From: Thermostichus sp. DRC_bins_24
GTDB lineage: Bacteria > Cyanobacteriota > Cyanobacteriia > Thermostichales > Thermostichaceae
Assembly (NCBI GenBank): GCA_039794845.1
Contig: JAUQVK010000004.1
Location: 1 to 62,292 of the forward strand
DNA length: 62,292 bases
Direction: 5' to 3'
Shown here: piece after piece, positions 263-18,516 of the stretch
Numbering within the stretch: position 1 is the stretch's first letter
Layout of the letters: each line of letters starts with the position of its first letter
Program-made: the position numbers and the translations under genes
The notes under the pieces: model-generated
Seen by the model: only the letters and a program-made list of their open reading frames with translations
Databases searched by the model: none
Told to the model about the DNA's origin: nothing

Positions 263-616
263 TCAATGCTGCAAGCGCTGAGCCAGGAGCTGTTCTTCTA
301 GGGCAGCGATGCGGTTGTAGGCGGCAGTCAACTGAGCGCTCAGCCGCTGCACCTGAGCTTCTGGGGCAATGTCATGTCCCATACTGCGACTGTTGACCAC
401 AGGCATCTCCTCATCCAGCAAAAAGCTGTGGCTACCATCTTCCACCAGATCGGAGGTGAGAACGCCGTAGCGGGAGGGGGTGGGGGTATTCTTTTTGGCA
501 TCTTGAGCAGCCAAGAGAACAGCGGCCAATTGCTCGGGCATACGCTCGATGGCAGCTTTCAGCTCCTGTATTTGCAATTCCAGATGCTCAAAATGATGCT
601 GCAATGCCTCGCTCAT
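263..616 (-). CDS. Conserved cyanobacterial hypothetical coiled-coil protein
   Basis: 117-aa ORF; C-terminal QVQRLSAQLTAAYNRIAALEEQLL resembles a widespread cyanobacterial hypothetical family. Confidence 0.8.
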   Translation of the reverse strand: MSEALQHHFEHLELQIQELKAAIERMPEQLAAVLLAAQDAKKNTPTPSRYGVLTSDLVEDGSHSFLLDEEMPVVNSRSMGHDIAPEAQVQRLSAQLTAAYNRIAALEEQLLAQRLQH

Positions 617-2126: not shown

Positions 2127-5100
2127 TTAGTCGAATCGGGTTCGGAAACTGAAGTTAACCGGATTGGCCAAAGGTACCCCACTCAAGCTGGTGACCCCGC
2201 CTGCCGGGAAGGTGACATCGTAGAGAGTGAGTCGATTCAACAGCGTGCCTCGACCACTGACGGTGAGGATGAAGCGGTTCCCCTCAATGGCCACCCGGGG
2301 GCTGGTGGCGATATCGGTGGTGCGGGTATCGAGAATGGGCAACAGCCGCCGCCGCAAGACAAGGGTTCCCGTTCCTCTCTGGATGGGTTGATCGAAGGTG
2401 AGGATGATTTGGGTATCTCGGGGTACGCCAATTGCGCCATTGGCCGGGGTCGTGGAAACCACCACGGGTGCAACCGGATCAGTCGGGCCACTGCCTGTTG
2501 GGTTCAAGCCGACGATCACCGGGTCGTGGTCGGAAGACCGGAAGGGATCATCGGAGTAGAACAGGCTCTGTTGAGTGGGGCTCTTGAAACTGAGGCCATA
2601 ATCCAAACTCACAGGCTCATCGGCGTTAATGTGCCACTTATCTGATCCGGTGACCTGGCTGTTGAGGCTGCTGTTGGCCAGGGCATGGTCTAGGGATCCC
2701 CACTGCCCTTGGAAGCTGAAGGAGTAGCTGTTGGGGCCATTGAGGTTGGTGAATCCACCCGCCTCTAGGGTTTTGATCGGGTCTTCCATGGCGTAGGCGT
2801 TGATATCCCCCATGATCAACACGTCCGGATCCGTGGAACCGGTGGGGTTGGTGGTCAACCAGGTGAGGATTTGCTGGGCCGCACGGGTGCGGTTGCCGTT
2901 GCAGTTGCCCTGGAAGGGATCATTGTCGGCAGGGTCACAAGGGGATCCCTTGGATTTGAGGTGATTCACTACGGCAGTAAAGTCTGCGCCAGTGCTCTTT
3001 TGTCGGAAGGTGACCGCAATGGGAGGCCGATGGCGGCGACCGGGGCCTTGCTGCAATTCTCCGGTTTCCAGCAGAGCCGGAACCGTACCGGGGGCAATTT
3101 CCACCGTGGCGGGCTTGTAGATAAAGCCGTTGGTGATGGCATCGCCGCCGACGGTCGGGACGCCCAAGTTCACGAGTTCGTAAGTGCCGGATCCCATGAC
3201 AGCGTTGAGACCATTGACCAAATCCTGAATGGCGCTAGCTGGCCCAAAGCCATCATTCTCGAGCTCGATTAGGCCCAAAATATCGGCGTTGATCAGGCGA
3301 ATGGCATTGATGATTTTGTCCCGTTGTCGGGTGAACTCGGTGGCATTGCTGGCCCCACGACAATCCGATGGGATGGGGAAACAGTTGCCGCTGCCGAAGG
3401 TGTTGAAGTAGTTGAGCACGTTGAAGCTGGCAACTTTCAGGGATCCCCCGACGGCGGGCGGAGTTTGTGGCCGAGGATTGGTAGCTACAAAAGTGGGCAG
3501 ATTGTTGGGGTCGTTGGGGTGAATGCGGTAGTCGATGGTGGCATCGAGAGCCTCTTGGGTTCCCCCAATGTTGCGGCCCCGCAACTGCGTCATTATCCCG
3601 GTGATGTTGCTGACGCGATCGCCACCGCGTACCGTATTGGCGGCGCTGAGGCCCGCAGGGGCAGGGTAGATGACCGGATCGGGGTTTTGGGTCAAGAGGC
3701 GGTCATCGATGCGGATGCGGCGGTTGTTATTTTGTTCCTGCAGAACCGGAGCCTGGCCGGGATCGGCAATCTGGGTGGGGGTAAACAACCGTCCACCTGT
3801 GGCGACACTCAGTTCCCCATGCCGCCCCAACAGAAAAGAATCCGTCACAAAAAGGGGCTGCTCCCCAAAGGTGACCAACATGCCCTCCAGGGCTTCCCGC
3901 TCATTGGGGGTAAGGGGCAGGTTGATCGGTACGGGAGTGGGCAAGGGATTGTCAGAACTGCAGATGGCGAAGTTGTTAAAGACATTGGTGAGCTGGGTTT
4001 GTTGCCGGAACTCCGCCACTGTGCCTGTTACCTGCACGGCATCCCCAAGGTTGACAGTGTTGGCGGTGCTGCTGAACACAAAAATGCCATCGGAAGTGGT
4101 GGGATCCCCATCTCCAGCATCTTGCACATAATAGCCCTGTAGGTAGGTTTGGCCGGCCACGCCTTCGTTTTCAAAGTCGCCCACCACAATGCCAGAAATG
4201 GTGCGGGTTTGGCCCACAATTGGCGAGGCGAAGCCATTGCCCTGAATAGCGCCAATGGGAGTAAGGGTGACATTGGGATCGCACCCTCCACCGGGTTGGC
4301 CACCGCCGGATCCCTCCGCAAAGCTGACGCTATCCACCCGCCAACGAGAGGCGGAGCCGGAACCTGTACCCGAAGACTGATAGCGGAAGGCAACATAAAC
4401 CGGGCTTGTGGACGGGATCCCCGACAGATCAATCTCGCCGGAATCGACAAAGGTGCCTGTAGAGACGTTGGGAATGGTCAGAGCCGTCCAGTTGGCAGCA
4501 TTCACCGCCGCTGCAGTGCCCGCACCCCTGTAGTCGGTGGAGTAGAGAACGCTCAACTGTGGGAAAGGAATGCCATTGTCGCTGAAGGAACTCTCATTGC
4601 GGAAGGTCAGGGCGGGATTGTTAACAGAAGCCAGGTTCAACGGTGGCGTAATCAGCCAATCATTGGCCGGCAGCTGACCGCCAAAATTGTTGGCCTCCGC
4701 CAAAGAGTTGACACACCGCCAGGAACGGGTGGTGTCCCCATCCCCATCCACAATTTGCCAGCCCGCCGGGGCAGGGCTACAGGAGTCAAAACCTTCGGTT
4801 AGGGGTAGGTTGACCGCAGACGGTGGGGTAGGTGTCGGAGAAGGAGAGGGTGTCGGTGTGGGATCCCCGCCACAAAGCGCTGGGTTAGCGGCAGCGCTGT
4901 AGCTCAGCTCAACATCATCGATGCCGAAACTATCGCGGGATCCCGAGCCGGTCGAGGCAGAAAGGGCGGCAACGCGAATATAAACCGATTCACACTGATT
5001 GTTGATATCAGTGCCGAAGGGACTTAACCCATTGCCGGTGGCCAAGGTGGTGGATCCAAATTGGCCTGGATCCGAGAAGATTCCCAGAGCGGTGAAGGAG

Positions 5101-5723
5101 CCGCTGTTGCCCACCCGATAGTCTACAGTCCAGGTGGTAGAACGGGGCTGCACACTCAACATTTGGGCTTTCAGAGACAGGCTAAAGTTTTCCAAGCCCG
5201 CGGTGTCATCGATCTCGAAGACAAAGGCCGCTCCCGGATCCCCGAAGGTGCCCGTTTGCCGGATCCCCAAAGCTCGATCGAGCGCTGTGCTCTGCTCTGC
5301 TGCCGTTGCCGCTTCCCCCAAAGTTCCATCGCCGGAGGCAAAGTTCTTAAACCTCCCCGCGGTGTCCGCCCAAGCGGTGGGGATGGTATTAAAGGTTTGC
5401 TCAGTGCCCAATTGGGTTGCGGTTGCCCCGGTGCGCACCGTCCACCCGGCGGGCAAGCCAGAACCAATCTCATCAAAAGTTTGCGTGTAGGAGGTACCCG
5501 AGAGCGCCAAGTAGCCGGAGGCAGAAGAAACTTCGCCGGTGGTCAACTCTTCAATCACAAACTCTTCAATCACAGAGGAGCTGGTGGAGGTTCGTTCGGG
5601 TGCTACCGCCAGCGGGGATCCGGAGCCACATCCTTTCAAAGACACCAGCAGGGCCAAGCCAAAGGTGATCGCCACCCAAAGTTGACCAACACGGCGCCAA
5701 GCCGCCTGAGACCAAGGCTGCAT
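2127..5723 (-). CDS. ExeM/NucH family extracellular endonuclease, multidomain probable lipoprotein
   Basis: Lipobox-like LKGC; PT linker; DWLITP beta-sandwich; OB-fold (DGDPTTSDGIFV); EEP domain (VASFNVLNYF, NHLKSKG, GDINAY, LDH, SSDHDPV); C-terminal Ig-like domain. GGAGG precedes ATG 5723 (track start 5765). Confidence 0.93.
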   Translation of the reverse strand: MQPWSQAAWRRVGQLWVAITFGLALLVSLKGCGSGSPLAVAPERTSTSSSVIEEFVIEELTTGEVSSASGYLALSGTSYTQTFDEIGSGLPAGWTVRTGATATQLGTEQTFNTIPTAWADTAGRFKNFASGDGTLGEAATAAEQSTALDRALGIRQTGTFGDPGAAFVFEIDDTAGLENFSLSLKAQMLSVQPRSTTWTVDYRVGNSGSFTALGIFSDPGQFGSTTLATGNGLSPFGTDINNQCESVYIRVAALSASTGSGSRDSFGIDDVELSYSAAANPALCGGDPTPTPSPSPTPTPPSAVNLPLTEGFDSCSPAPAGWQIVDGDGDTTRSWRCVNSLAEANNFGGQLPANDWLITPPLNLASVNNPALTFRNESSFSDNGIPFPQLSVLYSTDYRGAGTAAAVNAANWTALTIPNVSTGTFVDSGEIDLSGIPSTSPVYVAFRYQSSGTGSGSASRWRVDSVSFAEGSGGGQPGGGCDPNVTLTPIGAIQGNGFASPIVGQTRTISGIVVGDFENEGVAGQTYLQGYYVQDAGDGDPTTSDGIFVFSSTANTVNLGDAVQVTGTVAEFRQQTQLTNVFNNFAICSSDNPLPTPVPINLPLTPNEREALEGMLVTFGEQPLFVTDSFLLGRHGELSVATGGRLFTPTQIADPGQAPVLQEQNNNRRIRIDDRLLTQNPDPVIYPAPAGLSAANTVRGGDRVSNITGIMTQLRGRNIGGTQEALDATIDYRIHPNDPNNLPTFVATNPRPQTPPAVGGSLKVASFNVLNYFNTFGSGNCFPIPSDCRGASNATEFTRQRDKIINAIRLINADILGLIELENDGFGPASAIQDLVNGLNAVMGSGTYELVNLGVPTVGGDAITNGFIYKPATVEIAPGTVPALLETGELQQGPGRRHRPPIAVTFRQKSTGADFTAVVNHLKSKGSPCDPADNDPFQGNCNGNRTRAAQQILTWLTTNPTGSTDPDVLIMGDINAYAMEDPIKTLEAGGFTNLNGPNSYSFSFQGQWGSLDHALANSSLNSQVTGSDKWHINADEPVSLDYGLSFKSPTQQSLFYSDDPFRSSDHDPVIVGLNPTGSGPTDPVAPVVVSTTPANGAIGVPRDTQIILTFDQPIQRGTGTLVLRRRLLPILDTRTTDIATSPRVAIEGNRFILTVSGRGTLLNRLTLYDVTFPAGGVTSLSGVPLANPVNFSFRTRFD

Positions 5724-5800
5724 CACTCTTCCTCCATACCCATCGCAAGGGATCCCTCTTTTCATGCCCTTCCATCAGTACCATCCCCAAGGGCGATCCA

Positions 5801-5878: not shown

Positions 5879-7342
5879 TTAATCCCCCAGTTCGGGATCC
5901 GGGCGAACCCGTACTTCCATCTGTCGCAACAAGCGCAGGGATCCCTCCGGCCCGTCGATCATCTGCTGCTCGTTGATCCAGTAGGTGGCAATGCCCAGAT
6001 CCTCCAAAAAGTCGATGTACGGAGCAGGGGGTGGCCCGTCGAAAACGGCAGCCTTTTGCACGGAAAAGCCCTGTTCAATCCAAGGCCCAAGGGCAAAGCG
6101 TTCGTAGTACAACAACTGCCCCACCACCTCCTGGAGGCTTTCTGCCGCATCCTTGTGATTGAGCAGCTTCACCTCCGCCAGGAGCAAATGGTCTTCTGCT
6201 ACCGCCAGAAAGTCGAAGGTATGCTGGTCTTCCCGAACCTCCAACCCTGCCAGGCGGAACCAGCGGCGGAAATGGTGCAAAATCTCGTTGTGGCGATCAC
6301 TGCGCTCCAACTGACGGCGACGACGACGTTCGGCCATCATCGGATCCGCCGCGGAACTGTGGGGGATCCCACTGCTGCGAAATTGGGGCGGTTCATCGGG
6401 ATCCAAAACCACCCTGCCCCCGGCCGGTTGATGGAGTAGAGGGGGCATCTGCGGCAAATGAGCGGATCCCCAGTGCATTTCCGGTTGCTCGGCCCAGGTG
6501 AGCAGGTGTCGATTCAGGGGGTGATCGGGGTGGGTATCAAACAGCTGACGAAACTGTGCCTGGCCGAACTGAAAGTCCAGACGAAATTGCTCGATGGAAA
6601 TGTGGCTGCGCCCCTGTTGCAGCATCTCCTGGCCAAAGTAGAGCATCACCAACAGCGGATAAACCGGCAGCGGGCGATGGGTAGGGAGCAACATCGCCCA
6701 CATGCTATCCGTCCAGTGGGGGAGCAAAATCTCCGCCTGTTTGCCTTTACCCACCACCTGCAACATTTTGGGGTGTCCCGGCTGCCAACCGCAGGGATGA
6801 TCGTCGAAGCCGCAGGTTTGCCGCCCCTGATCCACACTCAGGGGGTAGCGCCCATCGTAAATCCGAAAGGGGCAGAGATCTCGGTCTTCTGCCAAAAAAC
6901 GTTCGTCCTGCCAGAGGTGGGCTGCGAGGGCGTGACAGCCAATCCCCTCCTGGCTGTTGCAACCTTTGAGCCAGCGCCGTTCCGCCAATTTGCCCCCCAC
7001 TGTACTGGGGGCCAGAGGCCGCACCAAGCCATTTTCCGATTGGTTAAACAGGGGCCAAACCAAGGGATCCCCGCTCTCGGGTAGGGTGGGCAAGGAAGGA
7101 TGGGTTTTGGTGTAAAAGGGATCGCAAATGTGCTGGGCAACTTGCTGTAGGGGCAATCCGTGGGCGGATCCCACCCAAGGCAGCAGGGATCCCGAGCCGG
7201 CTTGGGCGCGATGATATTGAATCGCCAAGGCCACTTCCACCCCAACCGGACGCAGCTCAGGGGTTAACTGCCGATAGCGTTGCAGAAGCCGTGAAGCCTG
7301 TACAAACAGGTCGTAGCGCTGAACTGGAACTGCGTCAACCAT
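5879..7342 (-). CDS. Uncharacterised protein with C-terminal PD-(D/E)XK nuclease domain
   Basis: 487 aa; C-terminal FDFL...LAEVK...QEVVGQLLYY; N-terminal ~300 aa not recognised. Confidence 0.75.
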   Translation of the reverse strand: MVDAVPVQRYDLFVQASRLLQRYRQLTPELRPVGVEVALAIQYHRAQAGSGSLLPWVGSAHGLPLQQVAQHICDPFYTKTHPSLPTLPESGDPLVWPLFNQSENGLVRPLAPSTVGGKLAERRWLKGCNSQEGIGCHALAAHLWQDERFLAEDRDLCPFRIYDGRYPLSVDQGRQTCGFDDHPCGWQPGHPKMLQVVGKGKQAEILLPHWTDSMWAMLLPTHRPLPVYPLLVMLYFGQEMLQQGRSHISIEQFRLDFQFGQAQFRQLFDTHPDHPLNRHLLTWAEQPEMHWGSAHLPQMPPLLHQPAGGRVVLDPDEPPQFRSSGIPHSSAADPMMAERRRRRQLERSDRHNEILHHFRRWFRLAGLEVREDQHTFDFLAVAEDHLLLAEVKLLNHKDAAESLQEVVGQLLYYERFALGPWIEQGFSVQKAAVFDGPPPAPYIDFLEDLGIATYWINEQQMIDGPEGSLRLLRQMEVRVRPDPELGD

Positions 7343-7530: not shown

Positions 7531-8925
7531 CTACTGCCGGGGCCACCGGGGAAAGCGAAAGGGGCGCTCGGTTTCCGCATCACGGTCGTACTCGGTGGGT
7601 CGGCCTGTATTGCCCTGAATCACCAAGCTGCCCACATAGTCCGCCTCTTGATACACACGGGCAATCTGTTCATGAATCTGAGCCATATCTTCGGCAGAAA
7701 CCACACCGTTGCTGGTGCCCTTGTAAAACTGAACCGTCACCCGAATCGGAAAGCGCGGATCCCGTTCGATCGGTAGGTTGTCGATCTCGGTAAAGGGGCC
7801 TTCCACCTCCCCATGGCCGATGACAGCGGCTTCCACATTGCTACGGCCCGCCATACCCGACTCGGCACTCATCAACGCCTGTGGGGCAGCCGGTACGGCA
7901 AAAGTCTGGAAATCCTGCTGAGGCTGTCGTTGTTTGAGAGGCACCTGGATCAGCATCACCATGTTCAGGGCTTCTTCTGCTACCTCTACCGAGTTGGGAT
8001 CCCGTGGGGTGGGGTCGGCGGCTTGCTCGGCTTGGAAATCCCTGAGGCGTTGTCCAGTCAAACTGGCCCGTTCGCCATTGTTGTTGAAGAAGAGGCGTTG
8101 CCCCCAGGTGTAGCCTGCCTCAAAACCTTGCGGACCAGAATCCAGTCCGCCATCCCCTCGATTGTCAACAACGGCGATGCTGGTACCCTCCCTAGTGGCC
8201 AGGATCGTCAGCACGGCTGGATTGCCAGGGTAAGACTGGTAGTTGAAGAGAACCGGGTTAAATTGGGCGGATCCCCCTTGGGGAATGGGCAAAAAGGCCG
8301 CCTGTGCACTCACCAAAACATGGCTATCCCGCGGGGCCAACAAAGACCGACGGTTGCCTGCCCAAGAGCTGCCATCGTGTAGGTAGCGGCGCAAATCAGC
8401 CAGTAGGTCGCGCAACGGGACAGGTTGCAGATCCGCTCCTTTTTCATTGCCCAGCAGCAGCCTTAACCCGTCTATCGGCAGATCGGCAGATAGATCGGTG
8501 AAATTGGGGTAGCGAATCACGGGCATGAGGCTGAGTTCGTAGCGGCCCGTTGCAGGATTGAACTGCTGCACTTGAATGGTCATGTCGCTGATGTTGGGGC
8601 CAAGGGCGGATCCCTTGTGGCGTCCGGTGTCTTCCCAGGTGACGTTGACAATATCCAGTCCATACCGCTGGGCTAGGGCACGAGCTTGGGGATCCCCGGC
8701 CATCGAAACGGTTTGGTCGATCACCTGCTTATAGGCTTGGTAGGCTTGCCATTCGGCAACAAGGGGGGGTGGGGCGGGGCGAGTCTGGGGGGTTTGGCCG
8801 AGCAGAAAATCCAATGGAGTGGCCTCAGAGGTCGGAACAAAAGCCGTCGGGGCGAGGGCTGCTCCAGCCAGGGAAATGCCAACCCAGCTCAACGAACGGA
8901 ATAGCCATGTCATGGGGGTGTGCAT
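7531..8925 (-). CDS. Uncharacterised secreted protein
   Basis: Long ORF; signal-peptide-like N-terminus from ATG 8925/8913 (track start 9078 probably too long); motif WEDTGRHKGSALGPNISDMT. Confidence 0.8.
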   Translation of the reverse strand: MHTPMTWLFRSLSWVGISLAGAALAPTAFVPTSEATPLDFLLGQTPQTRPAPPPLVAEWQAYQAYKQVIDQTVSMAGDPQARALAQRYGLDIVNVTWEDTGRHKGSALGPNISDMTIQVQQFNPATGRYELSLMPVIRYPNFTDLSADLPIDGLRLLLGNEKGADLQPVPLRDLLADLRRYLHDGSSWAGNRRSLLAPRDSHVLVSAQAAFLPIPQGGSAQFNPVLFNYQSYPGNPAVLTILATREGTSIAVVDNRGDGGLDSGPQGFEAGYTWGQRLFFNNNGERASLTGQRLRDFQAEQAADPTPRDPNSVEVAEEALNMVMLIQVPLKQRQPQQDFQTFAVPAAPQALMSAESGMAGRSNVEAAVIGHGEVEGPFTEIDNLPIERDPRFPIRVTVQFYKGTSNGVVSAEDMAQIHEQIARVYQEADYVGSLVIQGNTGRPTEYDRDAETERPFRFPRWPRQ

Positions 8926-9329
8926 AACCGGATCCCTTGTGGATGTGGGGAAGGATGCTATGACCCTAACCCTGGGAAAGGCCAAGGCTCTGACGGTTTC
9001 ACTTTTGGCAACAGGATCCGATTCCATAGGGCAAGCATCTCTACAATCTGATGTGCAATTCCTCCAGATCCCGAGCACTTCGTTCTTTGTTGCGCTCTCT
9101 CTTTGCAGCCTTTCCCGACTTTACAAAGAGCCTTGTGACCCAGAGGCTGGGTCACCTTAGATTGAAAGATCAGGCTGCAACCCTGTCAGGCAACCGCCTG
9201 AAATAGCCATAACGCCGGAAAAGGCTGTATGCGGCTTGAGCTGCAAAACCGATCCGTGGGATAACTCTGGTCGCCTTCCCGCTGGATTTGATAGATTCCA
9301 TCCATCGAGCGCAGCCAGAAGAGCAGGCT

Positions 9330-11271: not shown

Positions 11272-11841
11272 TCATTCCCCCACAAGCTCGGCAACCGAAA
11301 TGGCAAACCCTGGCAACTCGATCTGAGTTTTCGCCGTCTCAAGGGCCGTGAACCACACTTCACGGGAGGCGGTGATCACCAAAATTCGCTGACTTTCTGG
11401 AAACACCAACCACACCTCCCGCCCCCCCGACTGTAAATACTCCTGTGCCTTGAGCAATAACGCTTCGGCAGCATCCTCTGGAGAGGCAATTTCGGCAATG
11501 AGGGGAAAACTGTGTGGCAGAGAAACGGCATCTGCGTATTGCTCCGCCAGATCGGCAGGGAGATAAGCAATATCCGGACGACGGCCTTGTTTCAGGGTAC
11601 GACAAACGGCTTCGGTGTAGATTTTGCCCCCTAGTGAATGGGCCTTGAGAAAGGTACCCCAAGCAGAACTGAGCCGGGCCTGGATATTGGCATGTCTCAA
11701 GGTCACCGCTTTTTTCTCCAAGCTGCCGTCTACCCATTCCATGCTTTGAGGAGGATGCTGCAAGTACTCCTCTAGGGATATTGGCCGCGGAGGCTCTGAG
11801 GATATGGCAGTTGCCAAGGGTTGAGCAAGCGTCATGGCCAT
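11272..11841 (-). CDS. Uma2 family endonuclease (DUF820)
   Basis: MEWVDG, RRPDIAY, IAEIASP, KAQEYLQSGGREVWLV. Confidence 0.92.
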   Translation of the reverse strand: MAMTLAQPLATAISSEPPRPISLEEYLQHPPQSMEWVDGSLEKKAVTLRHANIQARLSSAWGTFLKAHSLGGKIYTEAVCRTLKQGRRPDIAYLPADLAEQYADAVSLPHSFPLIAEIASPEDAAEALLLKAQEYLQSGGREVWLVFPESQRILVITASREVWFTALETAKTQIELPGFAISVAELVGE

Positions 11842-17997: not shown

Positions 17998-18516
17998 TCA
18001 CTCCTGCCGGTGTTGATGCTCGCGCCAGAACTGCTCCGCAAAAGCCACCGTCGGGTGAATGGGGGCCCGCGGATGGCTCAGCAGAGGCATATTGGCTTGC
18101 TCGGGTGTGCGGTTGCCCTTGCGCTGATTGCAGCGTTCACAGGCGGTGACCACGTTGTCCCAGGTGTGGGATCCCCCTTTAGACAGGGGTACCACATGAT
18201 CCAACGTCAGGTGATGGGTGCTGCCGCAGTATTGGCAGCTGTGATGATCCCGCCGTAACACCTCCCGCCGATTCACGGGGGGCACCCGCCAGGTGCGTTC
18301 TTTGCCCTTGATGGTGAGACGAATGTGTTCGGGTACTTCGATCACATGGCTGGGGGAGCGTACCTTCCACACCGGCACGTTCATCATCGACAGCGGCTCC
18401 GCCTTGCCCGTCAGCAGCAACACAATCGCCCGTTTGATGTTGACCCGGCTAATGGGCAAATAGTTTTGGGAGAAGACGACAATCGACTGTTCCAGAACGT
18501 GGGTAGCAGCAGTCAT
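17998..18516 (-). CDS. HNH endonuclease (McrA-like, cyanobacterial type)
   Basis: RREVLRRD, CQYC, LTLDHVVP, NVVTACERCN. Confidence 0.93.
   Translation of the reverse strand: MTAATHVLEQSIVVFSQNYLPISRVNIKRAIVLLLTGKAEPLSMMNVPVWKVRSPSHVIEVPEHIRLTIKGKERTWRVPPVNRREVLRRDHHSCQYCGSTHHLTLDHVVPLSKGGSHTWDNVVTACERCNQRKGNRTPEQANMPLLSHPRAPIHPTVAFAEQFWREHQHRQE

Follow-up and report, generated by a model that had tools for sequence, protein, structure and literature searches.

Restriction enzymes are normally short-lived and travel with methylases. The classical Alw26I, Eco31I and Esp3I enzymes are HNH nucleases, Alw26I recognising GTCTC and Esp3I CGTCTC, and the restriction fold is also that of maintenance nucleases such as NucS and MutH, the latter linked to Sau3AI. 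Regarding the Alw26I/Eco31I/Esp3I (BsaI/BsmBI-type) systems, the site of Eco31I is GGTCTC (PMC4659465) and a circularly permuted C5 methylase is typical of the family (PMC5944983). R.BpuJI has an N-terminal recognition domain and a dimerising C-terminal PD-(D/E)XK domain, its nuclease being repressed until the N-terminal domain binds the site (PMC1874659); here and below, citations refer to the accessible parts of the papers. We analysed the gene of a 487-amino-acid (aa) protein on a stretch of 62,292 nucleotides from Thermostichus sp. DRC_bins_24 (contig JAUQVK010000004.1, positions 1 to 62,292), which as a whole is called the window. In our judgement, the scales are about evenly balanced as to whether this protein is a dimeric DNase, domesticated from a restriction enzyme and gated by its target, which helps to maintain the chromosome of the earliest-branching cyanobacteria; this is our best reading, built on sequence comparison and structure models.

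The protein resembles each of the described systems only in part. Like R.BpuJI, it joins an N-terminal recognition domain (N-domain) to a PD-(D/E)XK domain whose dimerisation is predicted, but it carries a QxxxY nuclease subtype, has no methylases and is a core gene and not a sporadic one. The non-cyanobacterial relatives of its N-domain adjoin the same methylase pair as the Alw26I/Eco31I/Esp3I systems, whereas the cyanobacterial branch is without such methylases and has lost the W-R-N motif of these relatives; models of the Alw26I-type endonuclease match neither the 487-aa protein nor any member of the group of relatives. With MutH, NucS/EndoMS and Hjc it shares the restriction fold and a methylase-free, lineage-core pattern, but the N-domain is another one, there is no sequence match, and MutL in the carriers keeps its own endonuclease. 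Finally, the layout of a reader plus a nuclease without a methylase is that of the type IV endonucleases (McrBC, Mrr/MspJI, fusions with SRA, PUA or EVE domains, and ScoMcrA), although no known reader domain was matched and the gene is distributed and surrounded as a core gene would be.

The open reading frame is real (Table 1), and its GC content (0.59) is close to that of the window (0.58). The protein matched no family in Pfam, PADLOC or NCBIfam, and none of 31 aligned orthologues gave a credible Pfam match. The full-length structure model, with a predicted local distance difference test (pLDDT) of 77.9, consists of two domains and a loose linker. Residues around 300-480 align to Can2 (Z 8.9, root-mean-square deviation 3.2, 125 aligned residues), and other matches of the restriction-endonuclease fold were the XisH family (Z 8.5), NucS (2vld, Z 7.1) and Hjc (Z 5-6); Cdn1 was matched by Foldseek at E 9e-4, and McrC and BsmI were also among the fold matches. 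Given this modelled fold and the intact D377, E390, K392 and QxxxY helix, the C-terminal domain is taken to be a PD-(D/E)XK nuclease, as a preliminary description, made from the letters of the window, had proposed, and metal-dependent DNA cleavage is predicted for it. The motifs which it had quoted (GCNSQEGIGCH, LCPF, TCGF, PCGW, EVK and VGQLLYY) are all present and are conserved rather than chance occurrences. Actually, C136, H137, C157, C177, C184, H351, D377, E390, K392 and Q409 are invariant in 29/29 genomes and Y413 is kept in 28 of them, while H351, D377, E390, K392 and Y413 are invariant in a 35-sequence nuclease alignment. The Arg-rich helix that it had mentioned corresponds to E338-R343, and the sequence around Q409-Y413 reads VVGQLLYY. 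The helix of residues 333-351 likely contacts the DNA backbone.

A prediction with two copies gave a homodimer whose interface is formed by the QxxxY helix and by helix 441-449, with a score of 0.47 against 0.00 for the best control; 20 of 30 solved homodimers and 1 of 23 monomers attained the mark used, and the runs agreed in at least 72% of the contacts with a pLDDT of at least 76. This model supports dimerisation, although it may be recall, since dimers of like fold have been solved. As a separate observation, the same Arg-helix plus QxxxY nuclease was found joined to other unannotated N-domains, themselves 300-400 aa long (P0048-P0076), many of which start with MKxFPHQ, one being a weak BpuJI_N match (P0064) and another MrcB_N (P0051); it is a shuffled module for which there is no Pfam model.

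The N-domain was modelled alone with a pLDDT of 92.8 and a predicted template modelling score of 0.92. Foldseek gave no match to it at E 0.001, VIA gave none with Z of at least 5 among 48,161 chains (best Z 4.1), sequence searches of the PDB returned nothing credible and the Atlas no usable match. No known fold was thus recognised by these searches, which is not proof of a new one. The top rows of the fold comparison were mostly winged helices at Z 3-4 (ORC/Cdc6, SarA/MarR, topoisomerases), a hint only, and the sulfur-binding domain of ScoMcrA (Z 3.3) stood among these generic winged helices. Likewise, none of the known modification-reader domains (SRA, PUA/EVE, McrB-N, sulfur-binding) was detected by Pfam in 31 members, nor by the two fold searches at the levels just given. 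The preliminary description was right in its anatomy of a DNA-recognition domain joined to the nuclease, and right that the N-domain matches nothing nameable in Pfam, PADLOC or the PDB. The domain is not unique, however, the relatives found by phmmer being recognition domains of type IIS-like restriction-modification (R-M) endonucleases. The label Cys/His-rich was too strong: the spaced cysteines exist, but only C136, C157 and C177 are invariant family-wide, the fourth, C184, being so in cyanobacteria, together with H137. The Cys cluster is the region of lowest confidence in both models. Among 46 N-domain sequences the invariant residues were W124, Q131, C136, A138, C157, C177, P226 and F268.

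The relatives were obtained with phmmer over 1.84 billion representatives. The distant homologues span the N-domain (P0042, E 8.5e-17 over residues 5-287), and in them it is joined to DUF3883/NOV_C, to HNH or to the same QxxxY nuclease. Thus the HNH fusions that had been thought worth looking for do occur, as do DUF3883 fusions, while fusions to McrB-type GTPases were not found among proteins of 512-2000 aa in a search with the N-domain alignment, which is weak evidence; all that was found was a partial match at profile positions 197-273 (E 5e-6), to a protein fused to an AAA_21 ATPase. A protein of 642 aa (L229:154-2082, and also L232) joins an AAA_21 ABC ATPase to an N-terminal helical domain that bears a weak likeness to the final 80 positions of the N-domain. 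The DUF3883 relatives carry a YD..EVK motif, which recalls the AHJR-like R.BpuJI, and P0064 links the QxxxY subtype to a weak BpuJI_N match, although BpuJI_N (PF11564) itself matched none of 31 members at E 0.1.

We examined 28 loci of non-orthologous relatives, some of them near-duplicates. A methylase of the Alw26I/Eco31I/Esp3I type was beside the gene in 25 of the 28, both enzymes being present in 22 and the C5 enzyme only in 3; these 3 are cut by contig ends, and 2 other loci end just upstream of the gene. The QxxxY, DUF3883 and HNH variants were all found beside such methylases. The N6-methyladenine (m6A) enzyme belongs to TIGR02987, the Alw26I/Eco31I/Esp3I family, the C5 enzyme is circularly permuted, and the two are separate or fused. 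Compared by eye with supplement 6 of PMC5944983, the methylases of the DUF3883 group match M2.Eco31I/M2.BsaI, having the segment GxGSRSTYYGR of the Eco31I/BsaI type (L033, L034 and 19 of 24 further loci), and L047 carries the segment of M.Esp3I. Since these target-recognition segments match Eco31I/BsaI and Esp3I enzymes, GGTCTC and CGTCTC are the predicted sites, and the relatives seem to form an undescribed type IIS-like family of predicted GGTCTC/CGTCTC cutters. These relatives sit in ordinary type II R-M systems, which read unmodified sites, so that the modification reader suggested in the preliminary description is a possibility only. They are sporadic, occurring in 2 of 401 genomes of the cyanobacterial phylum and scattered over many phyla. 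As a by-product, the analysis thus points to a widespread type IIS-like endonuclease family with a non-HNH architecture, swappable nuclease domains and the Golden Gate sites GGTCTC and CGTCTC as predicted targets.

Several observations on this family stand apart. It has at least 200 proteins (among them L033:8273-12522, L047:5992-10850, L048:717-6038 and L049-L072). In L072:2126-11003, a relative of the W-R-N type has no methylase pair and lies between a Cap4-nuclease gene with a long ATPase-like gene, perhaps Lamassu-like if we may guess, and a type III R-M pair. In L071:2198-6288 all three R-M genes are in pieces, either a decayed system or a poor assembly. The R-M system of L033:6393-16784 is accompanied by a serine recombinase and an integrase, and a piece of a nifH-like gene stands on either side of this group, which suggests that the system is cargo of a nifH excision element; the second nifH-like piece was seen in L003.

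The cyanobacterial proteins differ from these relatives in what accompanies them and in the helix that we take to be the recognition helix. TIGR02987 scored over the cut-off in 0 of 46 carrier genomes, the permuted C5 query had no match in 26 of the 46 and distant ones in the rest (best E 5e-34), and no cognate methylase pair was present in 42 orthologue loci. In the source genome of the window (G000, 99.9% complete) there was no PF00145 or PF01555 gene and no TIGR02987, the only DNA methylase found being one of the Dam family (contig C41, 744-1523); this genome has no C5 or N4/N6 beta-class enzyme, strongly avoids GGWCC and several 6-bp palindromes, and contains 3,546 GTCTC, 1,133 GGTCTC and 807 CGTCTC sites. 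Regarding the helix motif, W-R-N was found in 145 of 148 non-cyanobacterial homologues, whereas W-x-K/R was found in all 53 scored cyanobacterial ones and W-R-N in none of them (3 partial sequences were left unscored in each group). Furthermore, no 4-6-mer was depleted specifically in carriers, of which 9 were compared with 5 controls, and the observed/expected (O/E) ratio of GTCTC was 0.82-0.96 in carriers and 0.82-1.01 in controls (the source genome was counted whole, the others as samples of 80-118 kb). An unprotected short-site restriction enzyme was discarded on this ground. Taking together the missing methylases, the changed motif and the lack of avoidance, the 487-aa protein is unlikely to cut the site of its relatives or any short unprotected site.

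A link to highly iterated palindromes, or to the exclusion of HIP1, was also considered and dropped, as the carrier G404 has 8,312 HIP1 sites and carriers are GGGATCCC-rich, HIP1-rich or HIP-free. In the source genome the commonest palindrome is GGGATCCC, which is GATC-centred and has 4,573 copies. According to a 2026 paper, Gloeobacterales and Thermostichales lack HIP1 enrichment (PMC13756078, accessible part); the genomes G404 and G407 (family f43), which are very HIP1-rich and belong to the same order as the GGGATCCC-rich ones, sit badly with this, unless that order is drawn more narrowly.

The distribution of the gene is that of a core gene. Named close homologues (47-90% identity) come only from Thermostichus, Synechococcus PCC 7336 and related bins, Leptolyngbya FACHB-261, Gloeobacter and Cyanaurora. 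Whole-genome searches found the gene in 30 of 30 genomes of the order of the window, in 14 of 14 of the order of G437 and in 2 of 2 of that of G457, and we infer that these orders are Thermostichales, Gloeobacterales and the FACHB-261 lineage. In total, 46 of 46 genomes carry it in single copy, one copy being split by contig ends. It was not found in the other 355 of the 401 genomes of the class. A deeper profile detected no diverged orthologue in 401 genomes of the phylum, its hits being limited to the two R-M copies, to matches of the nuclease domain alone and to weak partial matches, and the idea of a diverged orthologue in other cyanobacteria was dropped; no phage or viral copies were found.

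The ratio of nonsynonymous to synonymous substitution rates (dN/dS) was 0.04-0.08 in 8 of 9 computable pairs and similar in both domains. Identity to distant carriers falls at the 40-45th percentile of 33-49 best-hit pairs. In the nuclease tree (29 genomes of the 46) all six families are clades and 17 of 26 splits are shared with RpoC1; the patristic correlation with RpoC1 is 0.88, the nuclease evolving at 3.4 times its rate, and the supported conflicts concern the position of family f56 and of genome G401. Retention across the three orders therefore appears to be mostly vertical. Most datings place the split of Thermostichales close to the Great Oxidation Event (PMC11304991).

Regarding the neighbourhood, in all 13 Gloeobacterales that could be assessed the gene is arranged head to head with a sigma-70 gene, a pairing that is not seen in the order of the window, and no sigma-70 promoter consensus was found near the gene. 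Elsewhere the neighbours vary (enolase, gcvH, ATP sulfurylase, secA, rbfA and frr). No defence system was recognisable among 108 neighbours, the PADLOC hits being domain cross-hits of genes that look like housekeeping or transposon ones: sigma-70 and an SMC/RecN-type ATPase, both confirmed by Pfam, and thymidylate kinase, AAA protease, GTPase and TnpB, named from sequence. The preliminary description had seen a possible new defence effector here, which is not supported, given the 46/46 retention, the housekeeping neighbours, the strong purifying selection and the fixed recognition helix. It had also named what would speak against its own idea, a core syntenic gene of a known family, and actually the gene is core and syntenic, though its family is not a known one.

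In the mechanism that we favour, the protein would act as the predicted homodimer: binding of its N-domains to a fixed DNA target would activate the two paired PD-(D/E)XK sites, the nuclease staying quiet until then, as shown for BpuJI. The ancestor shared with the R-M relatives would have been a type IIS enzyme for a site with a GTCTC core, although the tree is unrooted. The change from W-R-N to W-x-K would then have removed the activity on unmodified GTCTC, and this loss would have made the methylases dispensable. The target would most likely be a rare feature of self DNA, such as a lesion, a mismatch, a branched or stalled structure, or a long rare site; this is favoured because no 4-6-mer is avoided specifically in carriers. 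A constant self substrate would explain a target frozen over such a time better than a phage substrate, which would keep moving.

Several results weigh against a maintenance DNase. All other cyanobacteria searched live without the gene, so that its role must be dispensable or replaced there, and no DNA-repair gene is a conserved neighbour. RuvC is present in 5 of 5 carriers. As for EQH.AHER, CR and CPHGRP, which we take to be the endonuclease motifs of MutL, 5 of 5 non-carriers and 4 of 5 carriers have them intact (the remaining carrier was not extracted); the nuclease thus fills no obvious repair gap, and a stand-in for RuvC or MutH was rejected. Moreover, in the unrooted N-domain tree the cyanobacterial clade is not nested in an R-M subgroup, and the f56 conflict with RpoC1 may be a transfer. 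One of the 9 pairs has a dN/dS of 0.19. Finally, two copies in metagenome-assembled genomes are interrupted, by an in-frame stop in G410, whose locus holds 10 N, and by a frameshift in G412.

Among the other explanations, modification-dependent (type IV) restriction, in which the rewired N-domain would read a modified base in a context absent from self and the nuclease would cut invading DNA, is unlikely but deserves the most attention. It would account for a reader joined to a PD-(D/E)XK nuclease without a cognate methylase, the source genome would be safe, its marks apparently being those of Dam alone, P0051 joins the same nuclease subtype to MrcB_N, and among the Atlas neighbours of the full-length protein there are fusions with MrcB_N and with SRA, all below 0.9 and leads only. 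An arms race does not fit the housekeeping context and the invariant recognition helix, nor the retention in 46/46 genomes across lineages that split near the Great Oxidation Event (PMC11304991, accessible part). Furthermore, C5-methylase matches were found in 20 of 46 carriers, including 7 of 7 of family f43, to which the HIP1-rich G404 belongs, so that a general 5-methylcytosine cutter would likely attack self. A regulatory or site-specific chromosome-binding role, with the nuclease cutting only rarely, either at a long unique site or in RNA/DNA hybrids, and co-regulated with the adjacent sigma factor, we consider improbable. The winged helices among the weak fold matches and the sigma-70 pairing kept in Gloeobacterales would agree with it, and the site comparison across genomes covered 4-6-mers, leaving room for sites of at least 7 bp; nevertheless, that pairing is absent in the order of the window, a Z of 4 is background level, and the catalytic residues are as invariant as any.

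Quite improbable, in our opinion, is a partnership with the orphan Dam, where a GATC-containing site would be cut when unmethylated (a split R-M system) or nicked when hemimethylated, as MutH does. A Dam-family gene is present in 40 of 46 carriers, including every single-contig genome, and MutH has been reported absent from all cyanobacteria (PMC5101192, accessible part), while both the only methylase found in the source genome and the centre of its commonest palindrome point to GATC. The six carriers in which Dam was not found are all multi-contig drafts, one of them scored 100% complete. However, GATC is not avoided in most carriers (O/E 0.67-1.13, against 0.70-1.13 in controls), MutL keeps its endonuclease motifs, the predicted sites of the relatives are GTCTC-based, and carriers may be GGGATCCC-rich, HIP1-rich or neither.

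If the protein is a maintenance DNase, a wider proposal can be made, which we regard as tentative and rather doubtful. The last common ancestor of oxygenic cyanobacteria would have turned a type IIS enzyme into an undescribed nuclease for repair or genome maintenance; Gloeobacterales, Thermostichales and the FACHB-261 lineage would have retained this nuclease over some two billion years, and it would have been lost or replaced on the branch leading to the remaining cyanobacteria. This would make it a second, independent domestication in the style of MutH, with a Cys-containing recognition fold, and the free-living relatives would represent a structurally new class of enzymes cutting BsaI/Esp3I sites. 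That a methylase-free enzyme with a frozen recognition helix is fixed in all searched genomes of the oldest cyanobacterial branches suggests that DNA metabolism in the first oxygen-producing cells included an uncharacterised step.

The restricted occurrence of the gene had probably been noticed before. In 2010, Gupta and Mathews listed 14 proteins confined to Gloeobacter violaceus and two hot-spring Synechococcus; CYA_0039, 'Hypothetical (488)', heads the list, and the accessible part of the paper gives no fold, family or function for it (PMC2823733). The orthologues of the hot-spring Synechococcus genus have 488 aa, and in one closed genome the gene is about 36 kb from base 1. As length and genome position agree, CYA_0039 is probably the orthologue of the 487-aa protein, an identification made by these two features and not by sequence. 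We found no description of glr4361, CYA_0039 or this family in the literature, although closed supplements and subscription papers could hold one, and in one UniRef record an orthologue is labelled 'Restriction endonuclease', with nothing further. As far as sequence comparison goes, what appears new is the recognition-domain family, the pattern of a methylase-free, lineage-core nuclease of the restriction fold being itself known. A 'hypothetical' signature protein thus gains a putative fold, active site and ancestry, and possibly a function that later cyanobacteria dropped.

Table 1. Parts of the 487-aa protein gene and their positions in the window
Feature	Position	Strand	Remarks
Whole gene	5879..7342	-	487 aa, single-copy core gene of basal cyanobacteria; recognition domain and predicted PD-(D/E)XK nuclease
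N-terminal recognition domain, aa 1-290	6473..7342	-	common to type IIS-like R-M endonucleases
Inferred recognition helix, aa 123-131	6950..6976	-	W-R-N in R-M relatives, W-x-K/R in the cyanobacterial clade
Cys cluster, aa 136-184	6791..6937	-	putative structural metal site
Linker, aa 291-332	6347..6472	-	variable, low-confidence
Helix aa 333-351, DP..ERRRRRQL.R...H	6290..6346	-	invariant, runs into the nuclease
PD-(D/E)XK nuclease domain, aa 349-476	5915..6298	-	fold match and conserved residues
D377	6212-6214	-	
E390	6173-6175	-	
K392	6167-6169	-	
Q409-Y413	6104-6118	-	
Predicted homodimer interface, aa 400-416 and 441-449		-	two-copy model

In the window itself, no DNA methyltransferase lies beside the gene, as had been stated previously. 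Directly downstream is an ExeM/NucH extracellular nuclease with choice-of-anchor J and Big_5 domains (2127-5765, minus strand), which is found beside the gene in only some genomes of the same genus. The upstream neighbour (7531-9078, minus strand) encodes a 515-aa protein with a signal-peptide-like start and no match in Pfam, PADLOC or NCBIfam, and it has this position in about nine genomes of the genus. Unlinked to the finding, the window also contains a Uma2 nuclease-fold gene (11272-11841) and a small HNH gene (17998-18516), both on the minus strand.

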